DNA of 48,375 nucleotides from a virus (taxonomy: Duplodnaviria > Heunggongvirae > Uroviricota > Caudoviricetes). The notes beneath the pieces were generated by a model. It saw only the letters and a program-made list of their open reading frames with translations. It did no database searches and was not told the origin of the DNA. Made by a program: the position numbers and the translations under genes. The stretch covers positions 194,082 through 242,456 of the IMG/VR virus record IMGVR_UViG_3300038443_000660, one strand, 5' to 3'. Below, piece by piece: positions 881 to 34,125 of this stretch (positions within the stretch are counted from its first letter, which is position 1; every line of letters starts with the position of its first letter).

Positions 881-1522
881 TTACTTGAAAAACTGTTCGA
901 AAGCTTTGAGAAACTTTTCTTCTCTAAGTTGACGATCTTTGGTATTCTTGATTTCTCTAATTTGTTCATTAATAGTTTCTTGACGCTTCCATTCTAGACC
1001 ATCGAAAATCCACTCTTGATTTTCAATGATGGCTTCCATGTATGCGCCGGGTGCTGATGGTGTAGCTACAATATCAACTGTAACGAGATTGAAATCGGGC
1101 TGAACAATTTTGAGGCCATTTGATTCCTTAATAGAACCAAGTCCTCTTGAAGAAACACCAAGACGAACACCCTCATTAATGAGAGTCTTGGCAATTTTGC
1201 CCATTGGAGTTTCCATGAGACGGGCCTTGCCATAGGCAATATTGCCGTCCATTTTCAGTTCAGTGATGAGATGCGATACTTTATCAAGATTGAGAGTAGG
1301 CCCGCCCATGGGATGGTTTAACTCACCCATGCTGCGATTTTCTTTAATAGCTTGCTGATATTTATTGACTTGGTTTTCCAGAACGCTTCTGGGGTAGACA
1401 CGTCCATTGCCGTTTCTTTCTTCGGCAACCATAAAACGGCCAGAAATAGTATATTTCTTTGCGCCGTTTACTTCTTCGGTAAGATATTCAACATCTTCTG
1501 TGGTTTCGTTAAGCAAAAACAT
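881..1522 (-). CDS. gp21: Prohead protease
   Basis: NGNGRVYP, GELNHP and GVSSRGLGS motifs; position in the head gene cluster. Confidence 0.96.
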   Translation of the reverse strand: MFLLNETTEDVEYLTEEVNGAKKYTISGRFMVAEERNGNGRVYPRSVLENQVNKYQQAIKENRSMGELNHPMGGPTLNLDKVSHLITELKMDGNIAYGKARLMETPMGKIAKTLINEGVRLGVSSRGLGSIKESNGLKIVQPDFNLVTVDIVATPSAPGAYMEAIIENQEWIFDGLEWKRQETINEQIREIKNTKDRQLREEKFLKAFEQFFK

Positions 1523-1526
1523 GAAA

Positions 1527-1561
1527 AATCTCCTAAATATTTCAATTATATTTAGGAGATT
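1527..1561 (-). promoter_or_regulatory. Late-promoter-like CTAAATA inside a 14-bp perfect inverted repeat that pairs with the gp21 RBS
   Basis: aatctcctaaatat (1527-1540) / atatttaggagatt (1548-1561). Confidence 0.65.
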
Positions 1562-3706: not shown

Positions 3707-5392
3707 TTACGATATCCAATTGGAGTTTTCGTCGTCATCTTCGGGTTGTTGCTGCATTTGCTGTTGGTCCATGCCACCATCCATTGGCTGACCCCCGCCC
3801 ATTCCATCATCAAAACCACCGCCCATGCCGCCCATTGACGGGTCGCCAAAACCACCGCCCATGCCATCACCGAAACCACCGCCAAATCCGGCCATTTGAT
3901 ATGCCGGTTCTTCATCAATCTCTTTTTTCATTTTTTCCCATTCTTCTTCTGACAATCGAAGAATATTGGTTCTAACCCAATTCTGTGAATAGAATTTACC
4001 AATATATGGTTCGATAGAACGCAGATTGTTGATACGGTTCTGCATGATTTCACCTTCTTTTAGTTCGGTGAAATGTGTGTTTTCCAGATAGGTGATGATG
4101 ATATCGTCACGATACTTTTCCCATTCTGTAGAAGTCAGGACGGATTTGATAATTAATTGGTCGCCCAGAATATCGAGGAACAAATCAGAGAAACGAAGTC
4201 TCAATCGATTAACGAAGTTACCGAACTTCAATTCATCACGAGTAATTTCAGAAGGCCGCCCAAGATTAAAACCAGATTCAGAATCGAGTCGTGAAATAGG
4301 GACATTCAAAGCTTCATAAAGCTTCTTTTTCATGTAGTCGATGTCTGCAATCTGGTCCAGATTTTGTCCACCGGGAAGTGACGTTACAGAAGTGCCTTTA
4401 CCATCTCTTTGAGGAAACCAGAAATCTTCGAGCATAGTCGAAATTCTTTTATCATCTGAAACTTCGCCAGTTTCAGTATCAAACTTCAACTTTTTGTTAT
4501 GTTTCTTCATGATTTCAGCGACGTATTGTTCAGCTTTCGTTTTAGGAAGCTGACCAATCTCAATGTTGAATATTCTTCTTTCTGGCGCTCTGGAAATACG
4601 ATAGATAACCATCGCATCTTCAAGCATTCTTAAAGTCTGAAATGATTTGAGGGCTTTGTGAAGATTTGATAGAATAATCGAACCTGTCGAATCATAGATA
4701 CCAGAATGTGTATATACAATAGAACTAGCAGTAAGAGGGATACCAGATGGAGATTTAGGGCTTACACCATTAGCATTATAAACATAATATTCTATATATT
4801 TTTTGTTAACTTCAATCCCCGGAGTAACGATTCGAGCATAATCCGGAATCTTTTTGTTACTGCGAATCTGTTCACGTACTTTTTTGATTTTTCGAGGGTC
4901 GATATATCTTAATTCATAGATACCATTCTTGGTATTTTTAACATCAATATTTTTTTGATAATACAACCTGCCGTCAACATACCAATTGCGAAAGATTTTA
5001 TAACAATCTTTCTTGAAATTCATCATTCTTAGAATATTGTCAAACTCTTTCTTGATTTTTCCTCTAACAACATCTGGAATATCAATGTGAGATGTATCAA
5101 TATCGACTGGTCCATTTGGATTATCGTAAGCAAAAGCTTCATTGATAATATCGTCAATTGCTTTATCTACTTCCGGTTGACCGGCTAACTGTCTATACTT
5201 GGTTATCAAGGACATTTCGTCCATATTAACGGCGTCAAGATTTACGCCATAATTATAATAACCAGAGGCGGAAGACCCTATTTCAAGGGCACCATCATTA
5301 TTAGTTTTTTCGATGACATTGATTGTGGAACTTTCACGTTCCTTCTTTTCAACATCAACACCACGATTTAGTGAATAGCCCCAAAATCTCAT
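3707..5392 (-). CDS. gp20: Portal vertex protein
   Basis: WYVDGRLYY, YIDPRKIKKVR, LEDAMVIYRISRAPERRIF and EITRDELKF motifs. Confidence 0.97.
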   Translation of the reverse strand: MRFWGYSLNRGVDVEKKERESSTINVIEKTNNDGALEIGSSASGYYNYGVNLDAVNMDEMSLITKYRQLAGQPEVDKAIDDIINEAFAYDNPNGPVDIDTSHIDIPDVVRGKIKKEFDNILRMMNFKKDCYKIFRNWYVDGRLYYQKNIDVKNTKNGIYELRYIDPRKIKKVREQIRSNKKIPDYARIVTPGIEVNKKYIEYYVYNANGVSPKSPSGIPLTASSIVYTHSGIYDSTGSIILSNLHKALKSFQTLRMLEDAMVIYRISRAPERRIFNIEIGQLPKTKAEQYVAEIMKKHNKKLKFDTETGEVSDDKRISTMLEDFWFPQRDGKGTSVTSLPGGQNLDQIADIDYMKKKLYEALNVPISRLDSESGFNLGRPSEITRDELKFGNFVNRLRLRFSDLFLDILGDQLIIKSVLTSTEWEKYRDDIIITYLENTHFTELKEGEIMQNRINNLRSIEPYIGKFYSQNWVRTNILRLSEEEWEKMKKEIDEEPAYQMAGFGGGFGDGMGGGFGDPSMGGMGGGFDDGMGGGQPMDGGMDQQQMQQQPEDDDENSNWIS

Positions 5393-6183: not shown

Positions 6184-8100
6184 TTAACCGAATTTACCAG
6201 CAATTTCGTCAAAGTTGACGCCAGTTCTGGTAGCAATGAAGTTAAGGCGAATGAACTCGATTGCTCTTGCTGGCTGAATGTAGATATCAGCAACAAATTC
6301 ATTTCTATCAATAACTTCCGATGTATTATTTGAACCATCGCATATTACTTTGAAGTTATAGATACCACGTCTACCTTGCACGTCTCTCAAATATGGTTCA
6401 ACCATATTTCTGAATTGCGCTCTGGTAAAATCATCGTTGAATTCGAAAAGCTGATATTTCGCAGCTTTGGCGATAGCTTTTTCGAGAACGATGAACAATC
6501 TGCGAACGTTGATGCGGTCGAAAGCCGATGGCTTGGCCAGCAATGTCTTTTGACCGAACAGAACCGTCCCGTCACCGGCAAATGTTGCAACGTTGTTTAC
6601 AGAGTTCTTGTAAAGAATATCACGGTCATCAACTTTTGGATTCCACGCCAGCTTTACAACATTCTTGATGTTACCACGATTGAAACCGGCAGCAGCCCAC
6701 CAAGGGTCACGGTCCATATCTGTCTTAACATGAACACCAGCAATATCGGCATTCATAGGAACAAATCTGAAAATATCGTTATATCTATCGTATTGCCACT
6801 TCCAATTGTTGTCGAGAGAAGCATAAGAAGTAGAAGGCAAAGTATTACGATAATTGATAATATCTACAGCTTCGTCACCCTTGTTATTGACACAATATTC
6901 CTTTGGCGGAGAGAAGAACGCAATGCAATCGGCTCTCTTTTCACAAATGTTATTAATGATATATGTAGCAACAGTCTGTGTAACATCAGAACCAATGATA
7001 ATTGAAACATCTGATTCTTCTGGTGAATCGAAGTATGAATAACCACGAATTTTTTCATCAGCACCAATATTGTTGCCATTTGAACCATTTGTAAGCGTTA
7101 CGTTTACCGGCTGAATGTTTCCGGTAAACACCGTAGAAACAGAACCACCAGCGCCAACAATAGCGTTAGAGTGACCAGCCCAACGGACATAATCTGAACG
7201 TTGATTGATTACTTCCTTATAATATGAAGTAGAACCATCAGGATATTTACCATCAGCAGCCATTGAAATTTGTTGATAAACTTCAAGAATTTCACCTTTA
7301 CGTCCAGTGAATAATCCACCAGCATCAACTACAACAATGTGCATTTCATCGTTTCCGCCGCCCATGTTTGCGGCAACAGTCGAAGTGCCGGGAGCGATAT
7401 CTACTGAATTATAGTATTCCCAACGGCGAACAGCGCTTACACCAGTAGAAGCAGTCACAAAGTTTGAAACAGTTGTGAGCGACGTAGCGTTGGCAATTGT
7501 ATCCACCTTTTGTGTTTCGTTATTGACAATAATCAAATCACCAACAGTCAATTGGGTATTGAAGTTGGTTCCAACGCCAGTAACTACATTTGAATTAATT
7601 GTAGTGGAAACTGTACCAGTTAGATTAGATTGATATGCAGCCGCTGATGGACATACAGAAATTTTCAGTGAGTTACCAATTTCACCAGCATATTTCGCAA
7701 CCCATGGGCCGGTTGCGAACGAAGCTTGCAATTGACCGTTGCTGTATGACGCATTGTACTCGTCATCATTGCGAACCAAGAAACCCGACGCACCGGCAGT
7801 AGCATTCGTTGCTCTTGATGTAGTGTTAGCAGATGTTTCATCCGCTACACGAACAATCCAAAGTTTATTGGCATAAGCGAGAAAGTTGGCACAAGAAAAC
7901 CAGTCATTGGCGACATCATTATCAGGCTTACCAAATGTATCAAGCAACTCCTGTTCAGATGAAATCATTACTCTTTCGTTAATTGGACCCCAATTAAATT
8001 GACCGGCAATACCCGCTTCGGTTGTGGCAACGCCGGGTACGACCGTGGAAAGATCAAATTCCCGAGTCCAGACCCCCGGAGATAAAGAATTTACAAACAT
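6184..8100 (-). CDS. gp18: Tail sheath protein
   Basis: SPGV...GQFNWGP, AAGFNRG, FDRINVRRLF and FEFNDDFTR motifs. Confidence 0.97.
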   Translation of the reverse strand: MFVNSLSPGVWTREFDLSTVVPGVATTEAGIAGQFNWGPINERVMISSEQELLDTFGKPDNDVANDWFSCANFLAYANKLWIVRVADETSANTTSRATNATAGASGFLVRNDDEYNASYSNGQLQASFATGPWVAKYAGEIGNSLKISVCPSAAAYQSNLTGTVSTTINSNVVTGVGTNFNTQLTVGDLIIVNNETQKVDTIANATSLTTVSNFVTASTGVSAVRRWEYYNSVDIAPGTSTVAANMGGGNDEMHIVVVDAGGLFTGRKGEILEVYQQISMAADGKYPDGSTSYYKEVINQRSDYVRWAGHSNAIVGAGGSVSTVFTGNIQPVNVTLTNGSNGNNIGADEKIRGYSYFDSPEESDVSIIIGSDVTQTVATYIINNICEKRADCIAFFSPPKEYCVNNKGDEAVDIINYRNTLPSTSYASLDNNWKWQYDRYNDIFRFVPMNADIAGVHVKTDMDRDPWWAAAGFNRGNIKNVVKLAWNPKVDDRDILYKNSVNNVATFAGDGTVLFGQKTLLAKPSAFDRINVRRLFIVLEKAIAKAAKYQLFEFNDDFTRAQFRNMVEPYLRDVQGRRGIYNFKVICDGSNNTSEVIDRNEFVADIYIQPARAIEFIRLNFIATRTGVNFDEIAGKFG

Positions 8101-8206: not shown

Positions 8207-8524
8207 TTGGCCAAATCTAATGGAATGCTTGGAAAACAACATTCACCTGAATCAAAACTTGCAATGTCTCAAAAAAAGAAAGATTTATACAATGGAGAGA
8301 ATAATCCGATGTTTGGTAAATCTCATTCTGATGCTGCGAAGAAAAAGGTTGCAGCGTTTCGCAAAGGAAAGATATGGATTCACAAAGACATGGTTTGCAA
8401 ATCGGTTTCTTTAGATGAATTGGAAGAATTTTTATCCGATGGTTGGTCTAGAGGTCGAACCATGGATATACGAGCATCCGAAAAATACATCATGTCTTTA
8501 ATAGAAAATGGATTGACAGATTGA
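8207..8524 (+). CDS. NUMOD3-motif DNA-binding protein without a visible nuclease domain (homing endonuclease remnant)
   Basis: GKQHSPESKLAMS, GENNPMFGKSHS and C-terminal GKIWI...GWSRGR; GGAG RBS with TTG start. Confidence 0.7.
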   Translation: MAKSNGMLGKQHSPESKLAMSQKKKDLYNGENNPMFGKSHSDAAKKKVAAFRKGKIWIHKDMVCKSVSLDELEEFLSDGWSRGRTMDIRASEKYIMSLIENGLTD

Positions 8525-9427: not shown

Positions 9428-9627
9428 TGAAAAAATTAAGAGTTAAGCGATACATCAGCCGAACAAATTGGTCTGGCTATCAGCTATTACAAGAAAAGCG
9501 ATGGTATGGTTGGAAAACTATCGACCGTGAGGAAATTCCGGGTGATGTCGCTATTATGTTTGCATGTTTTGGTGATACCGGAAGTTGGAAATCAAAATTT
9601 TCGGAACATATTCAAATATCCTATTGA
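9427..9627 (+). CDS. Hypothetical protein (start at MKKLRV)
   Basis: TAATG stop/start overlap. Confidence 0.6.
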   Translation: MKKLRVKRYISRTNWSGYQLLQEKRWYGWKTIDREEIPGDVAIMFACFGDTGSWKSKFSEHIQISY

Positions 9628-9651
9628 CATTCTATAAAAACATATTATTGT
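9624..9651 (+). promoter_or_regulatory. Sigma70-like early promoter
   Basis: TTGACA-16-TATTGT. Confidence 0.45.
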
Positions 9652-9942: not shown

Positions 9943-10194
9943 ATGAACGTAAAGTGGCGAACGGTCCCCGATGGCCGGGAATTGTTGGAACACCGAATCT
10001 TGACTGAAATGGTCAATGATTCAAATCTCCGAAAATTCTGGGAACGAAGGGATTATCGAGATTTGATATATCATGTCATCCTTTTGACGGGCGACATGAA
10101 TGGTCCTTCTATAGTCATTTGGGGTGACGAGAGGGACAGCGAATCGATACGTGCCGATTTTGAAGAAGAAACACATTGGAAATTTGGAGTCTAA
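9943..10194 (+). CDS. Hypothetical protein
   Basis: GGAG RBS; last ORF before the CRISPR mini-array. Confidence 0.65.
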   Translation: MNVKWRTVPDGRELLEHRILTEMVNDSNLRKFWERRDYRDLIYHVILLTGDMNGPSIVIWGDERDSESIRADFEEETHWKFGV

Positions 10195-10213
10195 ATAATA
10201 CTTGCGGTAGACA

Positions 10214-10312
10214 GTCACGCCTCGTGCGGGCGTGTGGATTGAAACCAGTTGGCGGAAGGCGGCGCTGAATTGGTGTTGGCGTCACGCCTCGTGCGGGCGT
10301 GTAGATTGAAAC
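10214..10312 (+). CRISPR. CRISPR mini-array with type I-C-like repeats (2 x 32 bp, one 35-bp spacer); no cas genes in the window
   Basis: GTCACGCCTCGTGCGGGCGTGTGGATTGAAAC (10214-10245) and a copy with one mismatch (10281-10312). Internal hairpin CACGCCT/GGGCGTG and ATTGAAAC end. Spacer CAGTTGGCGGAAGGCGGCGCTGAATTGGTGTTGGC. Confidence 0.9.
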
Positions 10313-10359
10313 GCCTTTTCAAAGCGATTCATTTCATTGTTGTAGACGAGGCAAAGAAA

Positions 10360-10462
10360 ACAGAACTAAGTCGGCGCAACTCACGCCTGTTTCCGTTAAA
10401 TCCGGTTAGGTTACGCAGGCTCCTTCGATGGGAATACCGGATTCGTCCCGACTTAGTTCTGT
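10360..10462 (+). ncRNA. Unidentified structured RNA candidate
   Basis: Perfect 15-bp closing stem (10360-10374/10448-10462); inner 8-bp helix (10399-10406/10436-10443); crossing helix GCCTG/CAGGC; T-rich tail. Strand is uncertain. Confidence 0.55.
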
Positions 10463-10484
10463 CCCATTTTTATTAAATAATTGC

Positions 10485-10515
10485 TTGACTCTAGATTTTA
10501 ATTATAGTATAAATA
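10485..10515 (+). promoter_or_regulatory. Composite early/late promoter for tmRNA
   Basis: TTGACT-17-TATAAA, where the -10 lies within a perfect T4 late consensus TATAAATA (10508-10515). Confidence 0.65.
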
Positions 10516-10519
10516 CTAC

Positions 10520-10828
10520 GTTATGTTGAAGGTGACTAAAAGGTAGGCAGGACCGGAAGGGCGGTGCTTCCGCATCTCCACCATGAATACATCGCCACCT
10601 GTTATCGAAGGTGCAACCACGTCCCGGAGTCTGGCCGGTGTACTCATGATGGGGATGAAATAGGATCGACTGATACTAAGTAGGAATCCAGAGTAACCGT
10701 GCGCAAGCTACGATATCGCAAGAAACACTATAAATGCCAACGATAATGTTGCATTTGAGAACCGCCTAGCGGCGTAATCTCATTGGGTTTGACAGTTTTC
10801 CTCGAAACAGAAAAACTGTCATTTTTTA
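10520..10828 (+). ncRNA. ssrA: Circularly permuted two-piece tmRNA (alphaproteobacterial type); tag (A)ANDNVAFENRLAA
   Basis: Acceptor piece ends CATCTCC-A-CCA (10573-10583) after T-loop GGCGGTG. Intervening segment 10584-10650. Coding piece starts GGGGATG at 10651, giving a G3.U70 pair. Tag frame 10736-10777. Terminal hairpin 10790-10821. Confidence 0.93.
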
Positions 10829-11203: not shown

Positions 11204-11446
11204 ATGACATTACCGAATATCTCTAATAGAGAAAGCTTTTCCAAAGACGTTGAACAATTTGTAATCAGAACCGGCACGGACTATATGGATGCTATTCTGC
11301 ATATATGCGAACAACGCAATATAGAGCCGGAAACGGCGGCAAAACTAATCAACACCAACATCAAGAACATGTTGGAACGACAAGCGTCCGACCAGAATCT
11401 TTTGAATCATGATTCAGTAGTTTCCGATGAAATAGAATTTGAATGA
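11204..11446 (+). CDS. gp33: Late transcription coactivator
   Basis: FSKDVE...YMDAILHICEQRNIEPETAAKLI; directly upstream of gp59 and gp32 as in T4. Confidence 0.88.
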   Translation: MTLPNISNRESFSKDVEQFVIRTGTDYMDAILHICEQRNIEPETAAKLINTNIKNMLERQASDQNLLNHDSVVSDEIEFE

Positions 11447-12173: not shown

Positions 12174-13091
12174 ATGTCACTATCTCTAGCAGATTTGAAG
12201 AAAAGCAAGCAATCACGTTTAGATAACGCCATTGCAAAGTCTCAAAAGACTTACGAAAACAGCGGTTCCAATAAGGATGAACGTTTCTGGTATCCGACCG
12301 TTGATAAGGCAGGAAATGGTTCTGCCGTAATTCGACTTCTCCCTCCATCACCACAAGACGGCTTGGAATCACTTCCGTGGACCAAATACTTTGAACATTC
12401 GTTCAAGGGTCCAACCGGCAAATGGTATATTGAGAAGTGTCTGTCATCAATCGGCAAGCCCGATCCGGTAACAGATTACAACAGCAAGCTTTGGGCTACT
12501 GAAAACGAAACGTTCAAGGAACAGGCACGTAAGCAGAAGCGCAAGCAATACTTTGTGTCTAATATCATGGTTGTCAATGACCCTGCCAATCCTGAAAATA
12601 ACGGTAAGGTTTTCTTGTTCCGTTATGGTCAGAAGATTTTCGAAAAGATTAAGGCAGTCATGACTCCCGATGAACAGTTGGGTGAAGAACCTAACGATCC
12701 GTTTGATTTCTGGACCGGCCAGAATTTCAAGATCAAGATTAAGCAAGTCGGTGGTTTCCGTAACTACGACGACTCGTCTTTCTCTAATCCTTCGGCTATT
12801 TCGAAGGATGATGCGGAAATTGATAAAATCTGGAATTCACAGTATTCACTTGCTGAATTTACAGACCCATCAAAGTATGAAACCTATGAAGTGCTTGAAG
12901 CCAAGTTGGCTAAGGTACTCGATTTGAACAATGAACCTTTGGCAAAGACCGCCGAAAGAGCGTCATTGCAGATGGATACGGATTATCATACTGACTCGTC
13001 GGAATCGGATGACCATTATCAATCTGATAGTTCTGATGATGACGATTCAGACGATGATTTGGACAAAATCTTAGCAGATTTGAAGGACTAA
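12174..13091 (+). CDS. gp32: Single-stranded DNA-binding protein
   Basis: DERFWYP..DKAGNGSAVIRLLP, DPANPENNGKVFLF, NYDDSSF and an acidic C-terminal tail. Confidence 0.96.
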   Translation: MSLSLADLKKSKQSRLDNAIAKSQKTYENSGSNKDERFWYPTVDKAGNGSAVIRLLPPSPQDGLESLPWTKYFEHSFKGPTGKWYIEKCLSSIGKPDPVTDYNSKLWATENETFKEQARKQKRKQYFVSNIMVVNDPANPENNGKVFLFRYGQKIFEKIKAVMTPDEQLGEEPNDPFDFWTGQNFKIKIKQVGGFRNYDDSSFSNPSAISKDDAEIDKIWNSQYSLAEFTDPSKYETYEVLEAKLAKVLDLNNEPLAKTAERASLQMDTDYHTDSSESDDHYQSDSSDDDDSDDDLDKILADLKD

Positions 13092-15421: not shown

Positions 15422-18400
15422 TTATGCTGATTTCTTTTTATTCTTTGTGTACGGGTCTATCACAGAACCATTCAAATATTGCCCAATATAATCGTCATAG
15501 GTGAACGTTTGTTTTTGTACCTGTCTAGCACTTAAAGTATCGTTCGCATCAGTTGAATTTACAACAGCAACAATACCTTTCAAAGCTTCTGATACGATAT
15601 TATCATCATCTTCATCTACTTCTAGAGATAGATAAACACGTCTCTGGAATTTGATTTCTATTGTGTCATCATCTTCTTGATTTACAGACTCGCCATGATT
15701 GAATACTTCATAGCTACCAACAAGCGTATCATTTCCTTCTGGTATAACTGAATTTGAACCAATTGAAATCTTCGATTGACTGCTAATTGTATCATCGTTT
15801 TCAGTAATATTCACATATGCTCTCGTGGTGTTGAAAGCATTAGATATGATTGTATCAGAGTTTTCAGTTACGTTCAGAACACCACGAGTAGTATTGACAT
15901 ATGTCGATGATAGAGTGTCGTTACCTTCAATAGTCGTTAATTGTGCTTTGATGAGAATTGTTGACTTAATAGAACTCGTATCATTATTTTCATCGATATT
16001 TGTATTTGCTGCTACTACAATTTCTGCGGTGAATAAAGACGTGTCCGAATCATCGGTTTTCGAGAAGCTACCAGAAATTTGTGAATTCGAATCTGTTGAA
16101 ACAGTATCATGCATGTCAAAAGTAAACGACTGTCCAACAATCGGATTTTTTGAGATGTTAGTTACAGTATCATTCGCATCTGTATTATTAGATACACCAA
16201 ATGTTGTAGATTTAACTGCAAATGTTGTTGTATCATTAGCTTCTGCAATATTTACATTGGCAGCAATCGGATTATTGGCTGTTGACGAGAATGTATCTGA
16301 ATCTTCGGCTATATTAGAGATACCAGAAGCAATTGCTCTTGTTATCGATGTCAATGTATCATCTAATTCTGTATTTGCAGCAGAACCAGTAATGTTTGAC
16401 GTTGCCGAAGTACCTAACGTGTCATGAGGCTCAACGATGTTGACATTTGCGGCAATATTTGATTTGCCAGAAGAATTAACCGTGTCATTTTCTTCTGTTA
16501 TGGATACATATGAACCTGCCGTGGTCATGAGCGATGTGAACACAATTCCATCGTCATCTATTGTGACCGAAAGCGATGCTCTTGTGTTCTTGAATGAACC
16601 AGAAACAAGTGTATCGTTACTTTCCGTTGCTGTAAAGTTGCCAGAAACTAAAATCGAAGCCGATATCAATATATCATCTTCTTCCGAAACACCGGTTCCG
16701 GCTGAACTTGTCATTTCTGTAGAATATACGTAACCACCAGAACTATTACCATCTGCCACGGCATAATTCAAACCGTCACCAGATACAGCTACACCAGTCC
16801 AATAATGTTCAAAGCTAGTCGATATTGAGAAGCTTTCCCATGTCGCCCCAAAATCTTTGGACATGTAATATCCATCATAACGAGCAGCCGTAAGAATAAC
16901 AGAACAATCATTAGAGCAAGCGATGAATTGGAAAGTAGGATAATTGTATTCGTCAAAGAAATCATGCGCAACCCAAGTAGTACCAGCGTCATTTGACGTG
17001 TAAATTGAACTACCACCAGTAGCAACTAGATTATTACCATCTGTAGATGAAGCAACATCAAACCAGTAATTCCAAGTAGTATGTTCGGTCCAAGTAGCAC
17101 CAGAGTTTGTTGACGTATAAATGTAGCCATTATAAACAACAGCAACCAACTTTGTTCCATCAGCAGATGATGCAACAGAATACCAACTTCTAGAACCGGC
17201 ACTGGTTTGTTCTGTCCAAGTTGCACCAGAGTCTGTTGACGTGTAAATATATCCACCGTTCACAACAGCAATTAATTTTGTACCATCAGCCGACGAAGCA
17301 ATAGCATTCCACTCTCTGATACCGGAATTCGTTCGTGCCGTCCAAGTCGCACCGGAGTCGGTTGATGTATATACATAATCATTGTAGATAACAGCGGCTA
17401 ACTTTGACCCATCATCCGATGTTGTTATATACTGCCAATCTTTTACGCCAACTGTAGTTTGTTCTGTCCAAGTCTCACCTGAATCTGTTGAACTATATAG
17501 ATATCCGCCGTAAACAGTGGCATATTGTTTAGTTGCGTCTTTCGACATAACCATCTGATAAAATTCATGAAGTCCTGATGATGTTCTTTCAACAAGGTCA
17601 TATGAAGGTTCGCCACTTCCGGCAACAGTCGGGTCGAGTTTACCAGTTATTAATATAGTTGAATTTGCGTTTATAGAATCATCATTTTCGACATTTTCTA
17701 CAGAGCCATGAAGAGTCGTGCCTGCCACAAAAACTACTGTATCACTGATTTCTGTTTTAATCAGAGCACCACTATTCGCAACTCTAGACGTTGTGGTAGT
17801 AGAATCATTATCTTCAACATAGTTAAATGACGCCTTAAGCGACGTTAAGGCGGTAGACGTAATAGTATCACTGTCTTCCAACCATTCACCAGCCGTTGAT
17901 TTAACAGCGATTACAGAAGCACCAGAGAAGGTATCGGAATCTTCTGTATTTGTAGCAGCAGAAGCAACGATATTTTTTGCGTTCGCAACAAATGTGTCTG
18001 AATCTTCAACATTCACAGAAGACGATTTTATAGAAACTTTAGATGAGCCGGATAGAGCATCGTTTATTTCGATAACATTCACACTTGCTCTATTATTAGA
18101 GAAACCATAGGCATTTGAAATATAATCGTCACTATCAGATTTGTTAAATTGAGCGTGTACTGTAGTTACAGCAGTTGACGAGAATGTATCATCATCGTCG
18201 GTTGCACTTCCGCTTGCTTTAATTGTAATTTTTGTTGTAGAAGTTACCGTATCGGAAGCTTCCGTTACATTCAATTGAGTTGTTGAAGCAAGTTTTGCAG
18301 TAAAATTTACAGTATCAGAATCTTCAATACCGTTCAAAGATGCTCTATTTGAACTGAAACCATAGGAATCCGAAATATAATCATCTTCTTCAATGCCAAT

Positions 18401-21400
18401 ATAAGCACTAACATAGATATGGTCCTCGCCACTAGGAGTACCAATTAACGTCGAACCGTCATCGGAAATTCCAAAATAATTCCAATATTTACCAGATGTT
18501 GTCGGCAATGAAATCCATGTACCACCGGAATCATTTGACATATAGTTGTATGTCGCACCCATACCAGCCAGTTTTGTTCCATCGGATGACATGGAAATAT
18601 CGTACCATTCTCCGTCTACTTTTGGAATGATACTCCAACTTGTTCCAGAATTGTTTGAATAATATAGTTCATTACCAAGTATAACGATAGAACTTCCGTC
18701 ATAACTTACATCAATAGTGTATGGAAATGCACTGCCTGTTGGGGAAGCGCTTGCGCTCCATGTCACACCGTAATCAGTAGACTTTAGTATATTTGTTTCG
18801 TTACCGATAGCATATATTATAGAACCGTCATAATTGGATACGATTTTTTTCCAAATATGATTGCCACCACCTACTTGGTCCGTCCAAGTTACACCGTCAT
18901 CGCTTGATGTCCACACATGATTATTGTATACACCAGCTATCAGCAAAGAACCATCGGGTGTGTAACGGATGCCATTCCATGATGCTGTGGGAGAACCTAA
19001 TTGTTCGGTCCATGTCACACCATAGTCGTTCGATGTCCAAACATGACCACCGTCCACGCCGAAAGCCACCTTTTTACCATCAGCACTAGATGTTACCGTA
19101 TTCCAAGCTGTATTAGTATCAATTAATGATGCGTTCCAAGTGTTACCATAATCGTTTGACACTTGCACCGAATCGTAACCAATAGGTGCAACGATATGTT
19201 GTCCATTTTCAGATATTGTAAAATTTGACCAATATTTTAATGGAGAATTTTCTTTTGAATTAAAGCCAAAAGTTTTATCAAATTCAGCAGTAATAGATAT
19301 TGACGAAATTGCGTTGCTAGTATCATCTTGTTCAATAGAAGTTAACGAACCGACTATAGGATTATCAGAAGTAGCTAACATTGTGTCAGAAGCTTCCGTT
19401 CTTGTGACACTCGCCTTAATCGATGATGTAGCAGTTGCTGATAGAGTATCATTAGCTTCTGTAATGTTTGCTGATGCTCTAGTATTCTTGAAGGCCGATG
19501 ATATTGAAGTATCGTTATCTTCCGAACCAATTGAAGCAGAACTTATTGCAATAGTTGCTGTAGAAGAACTTGTATCGTTAGCTTCTATATTAGAAAAAGA
19601 TGCTCTATTATTAGAGAAACCAGTTGCAGTAAATGTGTCCGAAGCTTCTGTATGAGTCGAAGAAGCTTTGATTGCTGTTGTAGCATTTGATGATACTGTA
19701 TCACCAGCTTCTGTAATATTTGCCGCCGCTCTTGTGTTTTTGAAAGCAGATGATGAAATAGTATCGTTTGATTCGATAACAGAAACCGATGCCTTGACCG
19801 GCAATGTAGTCAATGCGATTATCGTGTCGCCAGTTTCTGTGATAGTAGCATATCCATTAAGGGCTTTCAATTCGCCAGTAAATGTAACGGTATCGTTATC
19901 TTCTGTGATAGTCGCATATGCTCGATTGGTTCCAAAACCAGATGCAGAAATGGTGTCGGAATCTTCCGAAGATGTAGCAGTTGCTGAAATTCGAGCAATC
20001 GACGCCGCAGTTATAGTATCCGATTGTTCTAGAAATAGTGTCGTGTTGGTATAAACATATCCAAGCGAATACGACGATGCAATAGTTCTCAAACCATCAC
20101 CAGATACGGCTACGTCTGACCAATTAATTGTGCTTCCAAATGATTGTGATGTAAAATTATTTCCATAATCTTTAGAAACATATAGCGTGTCATTATAAAC
20201 AGCCGAAATAGCTGCACCATCATCAGATATAGATGCGTAGTTGGCAGATACGGATAAAGTCGTCCATGAGTTTCTTGCTGTAGTTGAACTATAGCAAACA
20301 TATAAATTCGCTAAATTGTCGGTAACGGTAATTATATTCCCGTCTGCCGACATTGAAAGAGATTTACAATTAACAGAACCTAGGCCGGTTATTTCGAAAA
20401 AGCTGACTCCGGAATCATATGAAATCCATAGAGAACCACCAGAAGTACCGCCAATTATAATAGAACCATCCGCTGAACATGCTACAGTAGTCCATCCCCT
20501 TAAACCGGCAGAAGTTAGAGAATTCCAAGTAACACCAGAATCTGTTGACTGCCAAATATATTGGAAATTGACTGCCGCCACGAGTTTTGTACCATCAGCA
20601 GATGAAGCGATGCTATACCATTGACGAGAGTTGCTTGTCGCCCTTGCCGTCCAAGTTAAACCAAAATCATTTGATGTATAGATAAAGTTATTATATGCAA
20701 CAGCAGCCATTTTTTGGCCGTCATCTGAACAAGTAATAGCTTGCCACGTTCGTGAACCTGATGCTGTTCGTTCTACCCAAGTCTGACCATAATCATTTGA
20801 AGTATAGATATATCCACCATTGACAACCGCCGCCTGAACAGAACCATCCAATGATGCTGTTACAGACCACCAATTTCTGGAACCTGCACTTGTTTGATTG
20901 ATTGTACTAGATACTTGGTCAGATACTGTTGCTCGAATTTGTTTGAAACCAACAGCAGAAATTGTATCACCAGCTTCTGTAATATAAGCACTTGCCAACG
21001 CTTGCTTGACAACCGTGGACGACAGGGTATCATCTTGGTCTACACCAACCATGCCCGTTGTGTAGATATATTCACTATTTACAACACCAGCAAGTTTTGT
21101 GCCATCAGAAGATGAAGCAAGTCCATTCCATTTTCTTGAACCAGCATTAACGTCTTGTGTCCATGTTACGCCAGAATCTGTAGAAGTATACAATCCTCCA
21201 ATACTCATAACAGCGGCGAGTTTTGAACCATCGGAAGATGAAGCTACATTCACCCAAGGCCCTGTAGCACTAGCCGTTTGTGCCGTCCAAGTTGCGCCAG
21301 AGTCTGTTGATGTATAGACATAACTATTATTAACTAAGGCAGCAAGTTTTGTTCCATCAGAAGATGAAGCAATGCCTCGCCAACTTCTAGAACCAGCACT

Positions 21401-22054
21401 TGTTTGTTCAGTCCAAGTTGCACCAGAGTCTGTTGACGTGTAGACGTATCCGCTTGAAACTACAGCGGCAAGTTTTGTCCCGTCAGAAGACGAAGCGATA
21501 GATATCCAGCTTCTGGCACCAGCGCTAGTTTGCTCTGTCCAAGTTGCACCAGAGTCAGCCGAAGTATAGATGTAAGTTCCCGATACTATGGCGGCGAGTT
21601 TTGTGCCGTCATCGGATGAAGCTACACCAAACCAGTTTCGTGCGCCAGAAGCCGTTCTTTGTGTCCAAGTCACACCTGAATCGGCAGATGTAAATATAAA
21701 CGAGCCTAGCGTGCCAGCAACTAATTTTGAACCATCAGCAGATGAAGCAATACCATACCAACTTCTAGCGCCAGATGATGTTCTTTGTGTCCAAGTAATA
21801 CCGGAATCTGTTGACGTAAAAACGTAGGAACTTCCGTCGATGGCAGCAAGTTTTGAACCATCGGCAGAAGATGCAATGCCCCGCCAGTTTTTTGTTCCTG
21901 TACTAGTTCTCGGCAACAGAGTAGAATACGGCTGAACCTTACCCTTGGTATGAGTTGCCATCAAGGTGTCGGAATCTTCCATAATAGAAGCTACACCCTG
22001 ATTAACAGTAGATAGCAATCTTTGAGATTCAGTTAATCCAGAAAATACCCACAT
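15422..22054 (-). CDS. Giant (2210 aa) virion fibre/adhesin with Asp-box beta-propeller blocks and ~24-aa TExxDT stalk repeats
   Basis: Many W..IASSxDGxKL...YTSxDSGxTW repeats arranged in four blocks, alternating with Ser/Thr/Ala-rich E-x-x-D-T repeats. Confidence 0.75.
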   Translation of the reverse strand: MWVFSGLTESQRLLSTVNQGVASIMEDSDTLMATHTKGKVQPYSTLLPRTSTGTKNWRGIASSADGSKLAAIDGSSYVFTSTDSGITWTQRTSSGARSWYGIASSADGSKLVAGTLGSFIFTSADSGVTWTQRTASGARNWFGVASSDDGTKLAAIVSGTYIYTSADSGATWTEQTSAGARSWISIASSSDGTKLAAVVSSGYVYTSTDSGATWTEQTSAGSRSWRGIASSSDGTKLAALVNNSYVYTSTDSGATWTAQTASATGPWVNVASSSDGSKLAAVMSIGGLYTSTDSGVTWTQDVNAGSRKWNGLASSSDGTKLAGVVNSEYIYTTGMVGVDQDDTLSSTVVKQALASAYITEAGDTISAVGFKQIRATVSDQVSSTINQTSAGSRNWWSVTASLDGSVQAAVVNGGYIYTSNDYGQTWVERTASGSRTWQAITCSDDGQKMAAVAYNNFIYTSNDFGLTWTARATSNSRQWYSIASSADGTKLVAAVNFQYIWQSTDSGVTWNSLTSAGLRGWTTVACSADGSIIIGGTSGGSLWISYDSGVSFFEITGLGSVNCKSLSMSADGNIITVTDNLANLYVCYSSTTARNSWTTLSVSANYASISDDGAAISAVYNDTLYVSKDYGNNFTSQSFGSTINWSDVAVSGDGLRTIASSYSLGYVYTNTTLFLEQSDTITAASIARISATATSSEDSDTISASGFGTNRAYATITEDNDTVTFTGELKALNGYATITETGDTIIALTTLPVKASVSVIESNDTISSSAFKNTRAAANITEAGDTVSSNATTAIKASSTHTEASDTFTATGFSNNRASFSNIEANDTSSSTATIAISSASIGSEDNDTSISSAFKNTRASANITEANDTLSATATSSIKASVTRTEASDTMLATSDNPIVGSLTSIEQDDTSNAISSISITAEFDKTFGFNSKENSPLKYWSNFTISENGQHIVAPIGYDSVQVSNDYGNTWNASLIDTNTAWNTVTSSADGKKVAFGVDGGHVWTSNDYGVTWTEQLGSPTASWNGIRYTPDGSLLIAGVYNNHVWTSSDDGVTWTDQVGGGNHIWKKIVSNYDGSIIYAIGNETNILKSTDYGVTWSASASPTGSAFPYTIDVSYDGSSIVILGNELYYSNNSGTSWSIIPKVDGEWYDISMSSDGTKLAGMGATYNYMSNDSGGTWISLPTTSGKYWNYFGISDDGSTLIGTPSGEDHIYVSAYIGIEEDDYISDSYGFSSNRASLNGIEDSDTVNFTAKLASTTQLNVTEASDTVTSTTKITIKASGSATDDDDTFSSTAVTTVHAQFNKSDSDDYISNAYGFSNNRASVNVIEINDALSGSSKVSIKSSSVNVEDSDTFVANAKNIVASAATNTEDSDTFSGASVIAVKSTAGEWLEDSDTITSTALTSLKASFNYVEDNDSTTTTSRVANSGALIKTEISDTVVFVAGTTLHGSVENVENDDSINANSTILITGKLDPTVAGSGEPSYDLVERTSSGLHEFYQMVMSKDATKQYATVYGGYLYSSTDSGETWTEQTTVGVKDWQYITTSDDGSKLAAVIYNDYVYTSTDSGATWTARTNSGIREWNAIASSADGTKLIAVVNGGYIYTSTDSGATWTEQTSAGSRSWYSVASSADGTKLVAVVYNGYIYTSTNSGATWTEHTTWNYWFDVASSTDGNNLVATGGSSIYTSNDAGTTWVAHDFFDEYNYPTFQFIACSNDCSVILTAARYDGYYMSKDFGATWESFSISTSFEHYWTGVAVSGDGLNYAVADGNSSGGYVYSTEMTSSAGTGVSEEDDILISASILVSGNFTATESNDTLVSGSFKNTRASLSVTIDDDGIVFTSLMTTAGSYVSITEENDTVNSSGKSNIAANVNIVEPHDTLGTSATSNITGSAANTELDDTLTSITRAIASGISNIAEDSDTFSSTANNPIAANVNIAEANDTTTFAVKSTTFGVSNNTDANDTVTNISKNPIVGQSFTFDMHDTVSTDSNSQISGSFSKTDDSDTSLFTAEIVVAANTNIDENNDTSSIKSTILIKAQLTTIEGNDTLSSTYVNTTRGVLNVTENSDTIISNAFNTTRAYVNITENDDTISSQSKISIGSNSVIPEGNDTLVGSYEVFNHGESVNQEDDDTIEIKFQRRVYLSLEVDEDDDNIVSEALKGIVAVVNSTDANDTLSARQVQKQTFTYDDYIGQYLNGSVIDPYTKNKKKSA

Positions 22055-25173: not shown

Positions 25174-25578
25174 TTATGCATTGCCCGCATTGAGCGTAAA
25201 AACAGTGACCGTGAAAGCCTGTCCGGTAGCGAATGACGTGTTGTCAACAGTCATATCTCCACCACCACCAGTAGCGGTTACTGTACCCTGCATGTGGCAT
25301 GTACCATCAGAAGCATAAATTCTAAAGTGACCGGCTGTACCAGAAGCATCAGCCGCTGTATCCTGCCAAGTACCAGTCATTGTCTTTGAGCCGTTAGAAG
25401 CATTAGCCATCCAGTCAGTTGGCAAGCTACAGGTAGCCAAAACAGTACCCGTATTGGCTGTAGCACAAGATGCAGGAACAGCACCTGAACGAATTGTAAG
25501 AGTTGGTGCGGTGCCAATAGCAGTTTCAACAGCATCAAGTTTGGCATTACGAACCGTTACGCTATATTGTAAAGTCAT
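25174..25578 (-). CDS. Conserved virion structural protein (start at MTLQYS)
   Basis: GAGGA RBS and TAAATA late motif; RNAKLDA...GTAGHFRI...QGTV...GGDM pattern. Confidence 0.7.
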   Translation of the reverse strand: MTLQYSVTVRNAKLDAVETAIGTAPTLTIRSGAVPASCATANTGTVLATCSLPTDWMANASNGSKTMTGTWQDTAADASGTAGHFRIYASDGTCHMQGTVTATGGGGDMTVDNTSFATGQAFTVTVFTLNAGNA

Positions 25579-25665
25579 ATTTGTATTTCCTCTTGTGAAA
25601 AATGAGTTATATTTCACAAGTATTTATGCAAATTTAGACTTTACCAAGCGTATTTTCTTAAATTT

Positions 25666-30125: not shown

Positions 30126-31448
30126 ATGCCAAAGAAATATACCAAAGAAAAAATATGTGTTCAATGCAACAAACTCTTTGTTAATCGAAGAAACGCATTA
30201 TTTTGTTCTAGAGTATGTTCCAATAAGTATATGAATGCTGACAAGAATCGAAAAATTGGTGAAAGTAAAACCAAAAAAGTTAATGAACTAATATTTTCTA
30301 TTAAAGAAAATGTCATCACTGATTATAAAAATGGAAATGTTAAAATGCGAGAATTGGCGATAAAATATAACACCAATTACGCAGTAATCCAAAAAATTAT
30401 CAGTTCATACGATAAGAGTTTTCCGAAAGGAAGATTCAAAAGACACGATTTTGTTAAGAATAATCCGAAAATCTCTGATACATTTTTACTTCAACAATTA
30501 ATTGATGAGAAATATACGTGTAAAGAGATCGCATCAAAGATTGGTGTTTCTCCAAATTCGGTAGCTGTATTTTTACGAGAGTATAATATTAAAACATTAC
30601 ATGGTGGTCCATCATCTATCGAACGAATTTGTAGGAGTTTCATTCCAGAAAACATTCAATGTGATTTCAATTCTCGTATCCTAGACGGGCTGGAAATTGA
30701 TATATTTTTACCAAAATTTTCGTTCGGTATCGAAACGAATGGTAATTATTTTCATTCATCTAAATTTAGAGATAAGAGATTTCATTTAAATAAAACCAAT
30801 ATTGCCGAAAACAAAGGATTAAAATTATTTCATTTTTTTGAAGATGAAATTTTAGGCAAGCCAAACATCGTTCGTTCTATGATATTGTCTGCGATAGGAC
30901 AAACCGAAAATCGAATTTTTGCTCGTAAATGTAAGATTAAACATGTTGAAAAAACAGAAAAAACAGATTTCTTAAACACAAACCATTTGAAGGGTGATTG
31001 CCTTAGTTCTGTGAATATTGGGTTATATTTCGAAGATAAATTAGTATCGTTAATGACATTTGGAAAATCACGGTTTTCCAAAAAGTACACATGGGAATTA
31101 TTAAGGTTTTGCTCTTTGCTAAATCATTCTGTGGTTGGCGGTGCAACAAAACTTTTAAAATATTTTCGGAGTATCTATGATGAAGATATCATTACTTATG
31201 CCGATAGGAGATATTCACGAGGATTAGTGTACGAAAAAATGGGATTTGAATTCGTTAAAAATACACCACCAAACTATTTTTACATAAAAGGTAATTGTTT
31301 AGATAGAATGTCTCGATTATTATTTCAAAAACACAAATTACGAGATTTTCATAATTATTCTGATAACAAAACAGAAGAAGAAATCATGAAAGAATCTGGA
31401 TACTACAAAATATATGATTGCGGCACGAGTGTATTTAAAATACCGTAA
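30126..31448 (+). mobile_element. Hef-like homing endonuclease (Zn-ribbon/HTH plus a PD-(D/E)xK-like domain)
   Basis: CxxC...FCSRVC, EIDIFLP...IETNGNYFHS, IFARKC, ELLRFC, YADRRYS and KIYDCG motifs; antisense to the flanking late genes. Confidence 0.75.
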
Positions 31449-32385: not shown

Positions 32386-32850
32386 TTATAATTTGGAAGC
32401 GTCAATGAAAAATTGTTTGATTTGTTCATCGGTCAATCCCAATTCAACAAATCCAGCCTTCATCATTGGTTCATCCATGACAAATGTTCCTGAATTTTGA
32501 TAAGCGATTTGGATTGCTTTCGATTGAGATTGTACCCATTCTTCGACAACATCGATTAGCCCATAAAAATATAGCTGCATTTTGAATTGTCTCGCCGTAA
32601 CCCTATCCGGCGCTGTAACGTCCTGATAAGTATACACAAATGTTGGAATACCAGATTTCATTTTTAATGTTCGTGTAGCAACTTCTTTTCCATCTGGGAT
32701 TGATGGATTATCAACAATTGTTACCAAACTATAACCATTGTACGTCCAATTTGCTTGTGCTGGCATAAGTGTTTCACCAGTCGGCAATTGAAATTTTGCA
32801 CCTTCGGCAACTGTATCGATTATTTTATTACTTTTGATTAATGCTAACAT
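32386..32850 (-). CDS. Putative tail fibre assembly/chaperone-like protein
   Basis: VTARQFKMQL...LGLTDEQIKQFFIDASKL C-terminus; follows a fibre-like gene. Confidence 0.5.
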   Translation of the reverse strand: MLALIKSNKIIDTVAEGAKFQLPTGETLMPAQANWTYNGYSLVTIVDNPSIPDGKEVATRTLKMKSGIPTFVYTYQDVTAPDRVTARQFKMQLYFYGLIDVVEEWVQSQSKAIQIAYQNSGTFVMDEPMMKAGFVELGLTDEQIKQFFIDASKL

Positions 32851-32859
32851 TCTGATATC

Positions 32860-34125
32860 TTACTGTAATTTTTGAATAAACACATGAGTAAACCCGTTCA
32901 CCTTAGTAATAAACGCCATGTACTTAAAGTTCGCAGTGGTGAGAATAGTTTCTCCATCCACTCTTGTGTAACCGTTAAAAACAAAGGTTCCACCACCAGA
33001 AGATGAGTTGGTTATCTGAACTACCATTGTATAATCACCAGCAGCGGATGGAGCGGAGAACGTGATGTTTCCAGAAACGACAATTTTTCGGAAATTACCG
33101 CCAACTGGCGTTGGAATATAATTTGCTCCCGCCGATAAGGTTCCATCATCTACAACCGTAGCTGTAAATCCACCATTCAATGTGTCACCATCTCGCAATA
33201 CCAATTTATCGACATTGGCTGGTGTCAACACTTTATTGGTAACTGTTCTGGCGACAACTTCTGTATTAGATGCGACCGAAACCGCTATTGTAGGATTTCC
33301 ACCAACACCATTTGCGTTAGTGATGGAAACGGCACCCATCGCTTCAATGTTTCTAAGAATCCATGTATCACCGGCATTTCTTACGGCGATACCAAAACCT
33401 GAAAGTCCTTCTATTGCTTGAAGGTCATTCGTAAGAGCAAAAGTCGGATTACCGGAAATACCATTTGAATTGGTTATAGTAATACCGGCTGATGGAGCAA
33501 CTAGCGTTCTCTGTGCCCATGTGTCGTTCGCCGTTCTGACTGCAAATCCAGAGCCTGAAAGATTTTCCAGAGCATTCAAATCATTAGCGAGTGTGATTGT
33601 TGGATTACCGGCTATACCGTCAGCATTCGTAATCGTGATACCAGATGTTGGTTGAACAAAGCTTCTTTGTGCCCATGCATCAGCGGAAGTTCGAACAGCG
33701 AAACCAGAACCGGAAAGATTTTCCAGAGCGTTCAAATCGTTTGATAATGAAATCGTTGGATTTCCATTTATACCATTACCATTCGTAATCGTGATGCCGT
33801 TCGCAGGACCAATAATCGTTCTGGAAACAGCATTTGAAGAAGAATTCTTGACAATAATTCCGGTTGCGGCATTTGGAAATGCCTTATATGCATCAGAATT
33901 TAACGTGCTTTTTACAGCATTTACATCAACAACGATAGCGCTTACTGTCACATAAAGATTGTTTGTGTTACTCGTTAATGCATCAACTTTACCGCTAATA
34001 ACAGCAAGTTCACCATTGATATTTCTGGTATCACCAACAATAAGGTTGTCGTTGTTTGCAGACTGTCTAAGAGTCGTTGTGGAAGTATCAGAAATATCAA
34101 GTATCTGGGAAGTTAATGTTGCCAT
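32860..34125 (-). CDS. Fibre-like virion protein with tandem ~51-aa repeats
   Basis: GITITN.NG..GNPT..L.NDL.A.E.LSG.G.AVR repeated three times plus a partial fourth; occupies the gp12/wac position. Confidence 0.65.
   Translation of the reverse strand: MATLTSQILDISDTSTTTLRQSANNDNLIVGDTRNINGELAVISGKVDALTSNTNNLYVTVSAIVVDVNAVKSTLNSDAYKAFPNAATGIIVKNSSSNAVSRTIIGPANGITITNGNGINGNPTISLSNDLNALENLSGSGFAVRTSADAWAQRSFVQPTSGITITNADGIAGNPTITLANDLNALENLSGSGFAVRTANDTWAQRTLVAPSAGITITNSNGISGNPTFALTNDLQAIEGLSGFGIAVRNAGDTWILRNIEAMGAVSITNANGVGGNPTIAVSVASNTEVVARTVTNKVLTPANVDKLVLRDGDTLNGGFTATVVDDGTLSAGANYIPTPVGGNFRKIVVSGNITFSAPSAAGDYTMVVQITNSSSGGGTFVFNGYTRVDGETILTTANFKYMAFITKVNGFTHVFIQKLQ

Follow-up and report, generated by a model that had tools for sequence, protein, structure and literature searches.

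A cas-less type I-C mini-array in a T4-like jumbo phage, with two spacers matching an unrelated 36-kb phage

Virus-borne CRISPR mini-arrays that lack cas genes are an established kind of element. Those of viruses hold one or two spacers and target other viruses by way of the Cas proteins of the host (PMC11656645, PMC6858448), and targeting by a mini-array has been validated for the Saccharolobus portogloboviruses SPV1 and SPV2 (Medvedeva et al. 2019, PMC6858448). The locus described here lies in the last 48 kb (48,375 nt, the stretch that was analysed, referred to below as the window) of a 242,456-bp IMG/VR record. It resembles the arrays of SPV1 and SPV2 and the phage mini-arrays (PMC11656645) in being limited to one or two spacers, in the absence of viral cas genes, in having spacers that match another virus, and in the presumed use of host Cas proteins. 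It differs from them in its target, its repeat and its carrier. Their targets are mostly close relatives of the carrier, whereas here the match is to an unrelated 36-kb phage with serine recombinases. Their repeats are identical to those of a known host, whereas the nearest repeats found here in bacteria are 1 nt off. Finally, this array is carried by a T4-like jumbo phage of lytic type and has neither a leader nor a terminal repeat.

CRISPR arrays or partial CRISPR-Cas loci are also carried by huge metagenomic phages, a statement for which PMC11656645 cites its reference 13. Like those loci, the present one is a CRISPR component, with spacers directed at other phages, in a metagenomic genome of more than 200 kb. 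Many huge phages encode some Cas proteins, in contrast to this jumbo phage, which matched none of five Cas families. Al-Shayeb et al. are said to have described, in 2020, CRISPR arrays or partial CRISPR-Cas loci in metagenome-assembled huge phages. A different kind of phage element, RacrIC1 (PMC10651486), likewise places an I-C repeat hairpin just after a small ORF, and like RacrIC1 the present hairpins would compete for Cas5d and Cas7; however, RacrIC1 is solitary, while the element here has two repeats, and protospacers were identified for both of its genuine spacers. The mini-array architecture that hijacks host Cas proteins recalls the Cracr RNAs of phages (bioRxiv 10.1101/2024.10.29.618823), but the spacers of Cracrs are partial matches to host promoters, of cas or toxin genes, whereas the matches found here are full-length and lie in virion genes of another phage.

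The array, its surroundings and its carrier

The record that holds the window, with its direct terminal repeats, carries a completeness rating of 100%. Its genome is that of a T4-like myovirus, which also encodes baseplate wedge proteins. The features of the array region and the main phage genes around it are as follows.

3707-5392, portal of the carrier phage; closest to that of Ochrobactrum phage vB_OspM_OC (49% identity)
6184-8100, tail sheath of the carrier phage
9624-9651, + strand, sigma-70-like promoter (TTGACA, 16 nt, TATTGT), the nearest upstream on the array strand; a consensus match only
9943-10194, + strand, acidic ORF of 83 aa that stops 19 nt short of repeat 1; without a match in Pfam or PDB
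10214-10245, + strand, repeat 1, type I-C family; its last 11 nt are the predicted 5' handle of crRNA 1
10246-10280, + strand, spacer 1, 35 nt; match in a tail-fibre-like gene of the target phage (G001 and G002, see below)
10281-10312, + strand, repeat 2; its first 21 nt are the predicted 3' hairpin of crRNA 1
10313-10347, + strand, spacer 2, 35 nt, with no repeat after it; match in a gene for a 359-aa virion structural protein of G001
10360-10474, + strand, stem and T-run: perfect 15-bp stem (10360-10374 with 10448-10462), 73-nt core, T-run at 10467-10474
10465-10823, + strand, two-piece (permuted) tmRNA of alphaproteobacterial type (RF01849, 82 bits; RF04321, 95 bits) with the tag ANDNVAFENRLAA; not part of the array
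11204-11446, gp33-like late-transcription coactivator of the carrier phage
12174-13091, gp32 of the carrier phage

The elements are ordered repeat-spacer-repeat-spacer and run rightward, in the same direction as the small upstream ORFs. The two direct repeats are 32 nt each and identical at 31 positions, the sole difference being a G>A change at repeat position 23 (10303), within the tail of repeat 2, where it would affect only the handle of crRNA 2. In each repeat, a GC-rich stem of 7 bp closes a loop of 5 nt (-10.6 kcal/mol), and the last 11 nt form a tail with ATTGAAAC at its end. An earlier note on this DNA had described two 32-bp repeats, one base apart and with intact hairpins, which agrees with the 7-bp stem seen in each; its figure for the GC content of spacer 1 (22/35, 63%, in an AT-rich genome) is also accurate (62.9%, against 38.1% for the genome). 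It had listed both repeats and the first spacer correctly and overlooked the second spacer at 10313-10347. Downstream of spacer 2 no third repeat was found, degenerate ones included, and the array has no leader. The octamer TCACGCCT at 10381-10388 was considered as a repeat relic and rejected, being part of the conserved 73-nt core that is also present in Ruegeria phages. The I-C repeat occurs nowhere else in the 242,456-bp genome. The only other CRISPR-like interspaced repeat is an AT-rich pair outside the window (genome positions 68369-68402 and 68454-68487; 34 nt, 85 nt from start to start), which is unrelated to the I-C repeat.

The layout is that of type I-C, with a repeat of ~32 nt, a GC-rich hairpin and an 11-nt 3' tail. 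Both spacers, at 35 nt, lie within the 33-36 nt usual for I-C, and the 5'-TTC PAM of this type is present at the protospacer of spacer 1 in G002, while the corresponding bases are GAC in G001 and TTG at the protospacers of spacer 2. The identical repeat was absent from viral contigs, from one genome per species (185,579 species) and from 241 million metagenome records. A relaxed search, in which the distinctive A-T pair of the stem was kept and the loop freed, returned 52 array-bearing stretches from many phyla. The closest variants are one base off, with C for T at position 9, by which a U-G wobble becomes a C-G pair; they are located in MAGs of Bacillota and Spirochaetes, and none is from the Alphaproteobacteria. 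All five tested bacterial genomes with variants 1-2 nt away encode Cas5d, which in one of them lies ~5 kb from the array and in another ~95 nt from a solitary repeat. Because the nearest bacterial variants sit in Cas5d-encoding genomes, and adjoin Cas5d where this could be checked, the repeat can be assigned to the type I-C family, as the earlier note had proposed. No spacer of the arrays from the relaxed search matched the jumbo phage, G001 or G002 beyond chance. Since these arrays hold no spacer against carrier or target, and since the repeat type is spread across phyla, they do not name the host. Two low-GC MAGs with similar repeats were considered as host and rejected, since a search of both for an alpha-type tmRNA found none.

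Six-frame profile searches of the complete 242-kb genome gave no match at E<=1 to Cas5d, Csd1/Cas8c, Cas7, Cas1 or Cas3_HD, while the control genomes did give matches. The absence of cas genes from the window, noted earlier, therefore extends, for these five families, to the rest of the genome, and the full cas operon elsewhere in the phage that would have contradicted a borrowing of host proteins was not found. A TnpB- or Cas12-like nuclease near the array was likewise looked for and not found.

Transcription of the array probably comes from read-through of the ORFs that precede it. No supported promoter was found directly upstream of it, and the number of sigma-70-like matches in the region equals that expected from shuffled sequence. 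The heptamer CTAAATA does lie 16 nt before repeat 1 (10191-10197), where the earlier note had placed it. With 16 and 17 copies on the two strands of the genome, against ~41 expected per strand, it is not enriched, so that its proposed role as a promoter lacks statistical support. An upstream motif, TCTAAATA, agrees with the T4 late-promoter consensus at 7 of 8 positions and the phage has a gp33 homologue; this motif is not enriched in the genome. On the downstream side, a long stem begins 12 nt after spacer 2, and the array transcript probably ends at this hairpin and its T-run. The 73-nt core within the stem (10376-10448) is 90% identical to unannotated DNA in the tRNA clusters of two phages, Roseobacter phage DSS3P8 (11256-11328) and Ruegeria phage vB_RpoS-V10. 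The copy in DSS3P8 stands between the arms of another perfect inverted repeat, CATCCGCCGA / TCGGCGGATG, and for this reason the closing stem appears to covary. The core looks like a conserved structured RNA. It had no match in Rfam at E<=1, no further copies were found in viral contigs, and a consensus fold of the two sequences was uninformative.

The 83-aa ORF had no homologue other than itself among 5.8 billion proteins. Its gene is present on 11 contigs (JGI and Logan assemblies), and in both contigs of other assemblies whose gene calls span the array the distance from this ORF to the next gene is unchanged. The array region is no assembly artefact, and since the spacing is unchanged in these two contigs there is no sign of growth or loss of the array among sister strains. 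Five related jumbo phages (gp32 identity 61-64%; two of the records rated complete) all keep the order sheath, small ORFs, tmRNA, gp33, gp32. None has an I-C repeat in that interval or elsewhere in its record. Kept upstream of gp32 in all five, the tmRNA is therefore an ancient trait of this group; the array, absent from them, is a recent and lineage-specific gain in a variable spot just upstream of the tmRNA. Two copies of the hexamer GTAGAC flank the unit: one (10207-10212) lies just ahead of repeat 1, the other (10342-10347) closes spacer 2 and coincides with the point where its match to G001 ends. Tentatively, the unit may have been acquired through recombination between short homologous stretches, the 3' break falling within spacer 2.

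Protospacers and the target phage

When the viral collection was searched with spacer 1, every sixth base being left free, two contigs matched. In G001 (IMGVR_UViG_3300037419_000651, 34033-34067) the match is 35/35 and the PAM position reads GAC. In G002 (IMGVR_UViG_3300037418_001111, 1510-1544, minus strand) it is 34/35, with a mismatch at position 18 and a TTC PAM that stands 5' of the protospacer, the side predicted from the orientation of the repeat. As no repeats adjoin either match, these are protospacers rather than parts of arrays. Type I Cascades leave every sixth spacer position flipped out and unpaired. As position 18 is one of these positions, and the PAM is TTC, G002 should be fully targetable. 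The earlier note had held that a spacer match with a 5'-TTC PAM would support targeting; of the two copies found, both outside arrays, the one in G002 has it. Against isolate phages and plasmids, BLAST with spacer 1 gave only partial matches at chance level (E>=0.08), and metagenome contigs gave none. Self-targeting by spacer 1 was considered and rejected, its best match in the jumbo phage genome having 13 mismatches.

The gene that contains protospacer 1 encodes a tail-fibre-like protein of 318 aa, with matches to PHROG tail proteins and a CBM_5_12-like motif; an exact look-up of the protein found nothing. Its coding frame, GCC AAC ACC ..., gives ANTNSAPPSANW. The suggestion in the earlier note that the reverse strand of the spacer is coding thus proves correct for the strand in the target, but not for the frame, which had been read as QHQFSAAFRQL. 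An origin from high-GC DNA, also suggested there, does not hold: the target phage has 45% GC and is GC-rich only in the local tail-fibre segment. The PAM position of G001 differs from that of G002 by a codon in which two bases are changed, from AAC (Asn) to TCC (Ser); the difference at position 18 is synonymous. The altered PAM of G001 is suggestive of escape, although it is no proof by itself, because the two tail-fibre-like genes differ at 8% of their bases overall.

The second protospacer came from a comparison of the whole genomes of G001 and the jumbo phage, in which a short match begins exactly at the first base after repeat 2. Spacer 2 agrees with G001 8232-8266 at 30 of 35 positions, with mismatches at 3, 21, 27, 33 and 35, and TTG at the PAM position. 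The chance of a match of at least 30/35 anywhere in 36 kb is ~5e-9. The gene concerned encodes the 359-aa virion structural protein, which has a faint Peptidase_S74 match, and the protospacer sequence is found again in a third contig (IMGVR_UViG_3300037418_002048) from the G002 sample. Both spacers have as their source the same phage lineage and the same DNA strand. G001 as sampled would probably escape both guides, because of GAC at the PAM position for spacer 1, and TTG together with a seed mismatch for spacer 2.

G001 comprises 35,973 bp with direct terminal repeats, and G002 is a 19.9-kb fragment ~90% identical to it. The genes of G001 include a P22-type portal, a terminase, a capsid gene, an SU10-like adaptor, tail genes and Rz-like spanins. 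Two serine recombinases are encoded, one of them of the integrase type (575 aa). From this gene content, G001 is a small phage of a Gram-negative host, and probably temperate. Its architecture is unrelated to that of the jumbo phage. Nevertheless, the two have genes in common, including the following.

25174-25617, - strand, gene of 147 aa shared with G001 (82% amino acid identity)
32386-32850, - strand, gene of 154 aa; its counterpart in G001 (51% identity) is the immediate neighbour of the targeted tail-fibre gene

Three proteins of the lysis region (38-71%), where the shared genes are spanin-like, and a further small protein (75%) are also common to both phages, and a 2210-aa fibre-like protein shares 876 residues with G001 at 34%. 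The shared regions include 15422-22054 of the window and positions 150427-151729 of the genome, and nucleotide identity in the shared genes reaches 80%. These similarities point to recent gene exchange, and because lysis and tail modules are shared, the two phages plausibly infect the same pool of hosts. The sample numbers (3300038393/Ga0395904 for the jumbo phage, 3300037419/Ga0395903 for G001 and 3300037418/Ga0395900 for G002) are nearly consecutive JGI numbers, which suggests that the three samples form one series; a literature search for the numbers gave no result. There are four hints of an alphaproteobacterial host, namely the two-piece alpha-type tmRNA with its tag, an Ochrobactrum phage as the nearest isolate, homologues of the G001 portal in MAGs of Parvibaculaceae and Hyphomicrobiales (~36% identity), and the RNA core of 73 nt shared at 90% with Ruegeria phages.

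Proposed function and alternatives

The locus has two spacers, no cas genes in a complete genome, and spacers that match another virus, as is characteristic of viral mini-arrays. Its probable function is that of a two-spacer, cas-less, virus-borne I-C mini-array that uses the I-C Cascade and Cas3 of the host against a competing phage. This is the main proposal of the earlier note, a phage array borrowing host Cascade against a rival phage, and the spacer matches, the TTC PAM and the lack of a cas operon all support it. For the other options named there, a target in a host gene or titration of Cas proteins, the data speak neither way. For the steps in between, i.e. transcription, processing by Cas5d, a compatible I-C host and interference, we infer the following course. 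Host Cas5d would cleave both repeats on the 3' side of the hairpin, at its base, which is where Cas5d cuts according to Nam 2012 and Garside 2012, as these are cited in PMC10651486. The first crRNA would be canonical, with an 11-nt handle from repeat 1, the 35 nt of spacer 1 and the 21-nt hairpin of repeat 2. That the only repeat mutation lies outside this crRNA counts in favour of targeting. Guide 2 would be non-canonical, having a handle with the G>A change, then spacer 2, and no 3' repeat; in the absence of the terminal repeat it may not mature normally. Loaded into host Cascade, spacer 1 would steer Cas3 to the tail-fibre-like gene of the 36-kb phage, and genomes of the G002 type would be destroyed, while G001 as sampled would escape. 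The competitor would be removed at co-infection or attacked as a resident prophage. Several points speak against this reading: bacterial arrays with the identical repeat were not found in the collections searched, and the 1-nt variants lie outside the Alphaproteobacteria to which the tmRNA and the nearest relatives point; the array has neither a leader nor a supported promoter directly upstream; as a recent gain, absent from five related phages, it could be an unselected passenger; and the only complete target genome, G001, would probably escape both guides.

In a narrower form of this proposal, the G001 lineage lives as a prophage in a shared host, and the guide of the lytic jumbo phage turns host Cascade and Cas3 on the resident prophage. 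The large serine recombinase encoded by G001 is the reason why the target may live as a prophage; as a specific account, however, this form is distinctly improbable. If true, it would imply processive degradation of the host chromosome by Cas3 from inside the prophage, a faster shut-off of the host, and the pre-emption of prophage induction or of prophage-encoded exclusion, and G001, with its GAC, would have escaped by a natural change of PAM from CRISPR pressure imposed by a phage.

It is unlikely that the unit is a mere passenger, that is, a fragment of a host I-C array (one spacer between two repeats, and most of another spacer) taken up by illegitimate recombination and of no selected function, in which case the spacers would match G001 only since the host had immunised itself against that phage. 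Such a history would suit the absence of the array from all five relatives that keep the flanking tmRNA and genes, the lack of both leader and terminal repeat, and the GTAGAC direct repeat at the two ends of the unit, which is like a recombination junction. Yet apart from one base outside crRNA 1 both repeats are intact, the unit is aligned with local transcription and followed by a terminator-like hairpin, and the gene spacing across it is the same in two contigs of other assemblies; moreover, an origin by capture is compatible with function.

The other alternatives accept a function but change its object. A Racr-like decoy, the hairpins of which would soak up Cas5d and Cas7 and weaken I-C immunity against the jumbo phage, would leave the spacers as incidental, whereas both of them match one foreign phage, and one has the canonical PAM. 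Racrs are solitary repeat units, and two full repeats with spacers of normal length are found here; on the sequence, membership in the solitary-repeat Racr family is excluded, since there are two repeats and genuine spacers with protospacers. Titration does have a precedent, as RacrIC1, a mimic of the I-C repeat, inhibits I-C immunity and Racrs often lie just downstream of small acr genes (PMC10651486), and the array begins 19 nt after an acidic orphan ORF of 83 aa. By position alone, in analogy to acr-racr pairs, this ORF is an anti-CRISPR candidate, but with no Pfam or PDB match nothing marks it as one. A decoy as the main role is very unlikely; some titration of Cas proteins could occur alongside targeting. 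Still further removed, and scarcely credible, is a regulatory RNA of the Cracr type, in which one guide, most plausibly the second, would send host Cascade to silence a host promoter (of cas or of another defence). Phage mini-arrays that encode such RNAs have been reported (bioRxiv 10.1101/2024.10.29.618823), and guide 2, with its altered handle and no 3' repeat, would be suited to such a role; both spacers, however, are full length and phage-derived.

Under the favoured reading, use of host Cascade and Cas3 against a competitor, the locus is a well-resolved addition to the short list of virus-borne mini-arrays, with carrier and target both available as complete genomes. What is new is that both spacers are traced to virion genes of one competitor lineage, and that a natural pair of targets, with TTC and non-PAM variants, is at hand. 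A large phage of lytic type would here direct host immunity not at its siblings but at an unrelated phage, its partner in the exchange of lysis and tail genes. If the host is found, the two phages would form a tractable pair for studying how phage-encoded guides shape competition between phages, and would allow a test of whether phages, as well as bacteria, drive PAM escape.

Two minor observations concern other loci. In the window, an ORF of 440 aa (30126-31448) is of the HNH/homing-endonuclease type, with HTH domains; GC content drops locally to 31% there, and the ORF probably represents a mobile insertion. In the proteobacterial MAG contig CAIPQN010000086.1, a solitary I-C repeat (6246-6276) is situated between an ORF of 762 aa and cas5d (6370-7002), and resembles the crRNA-like regulatory elements of cas loci. 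Elements of that kind were reportedly described by Shmakov et al.
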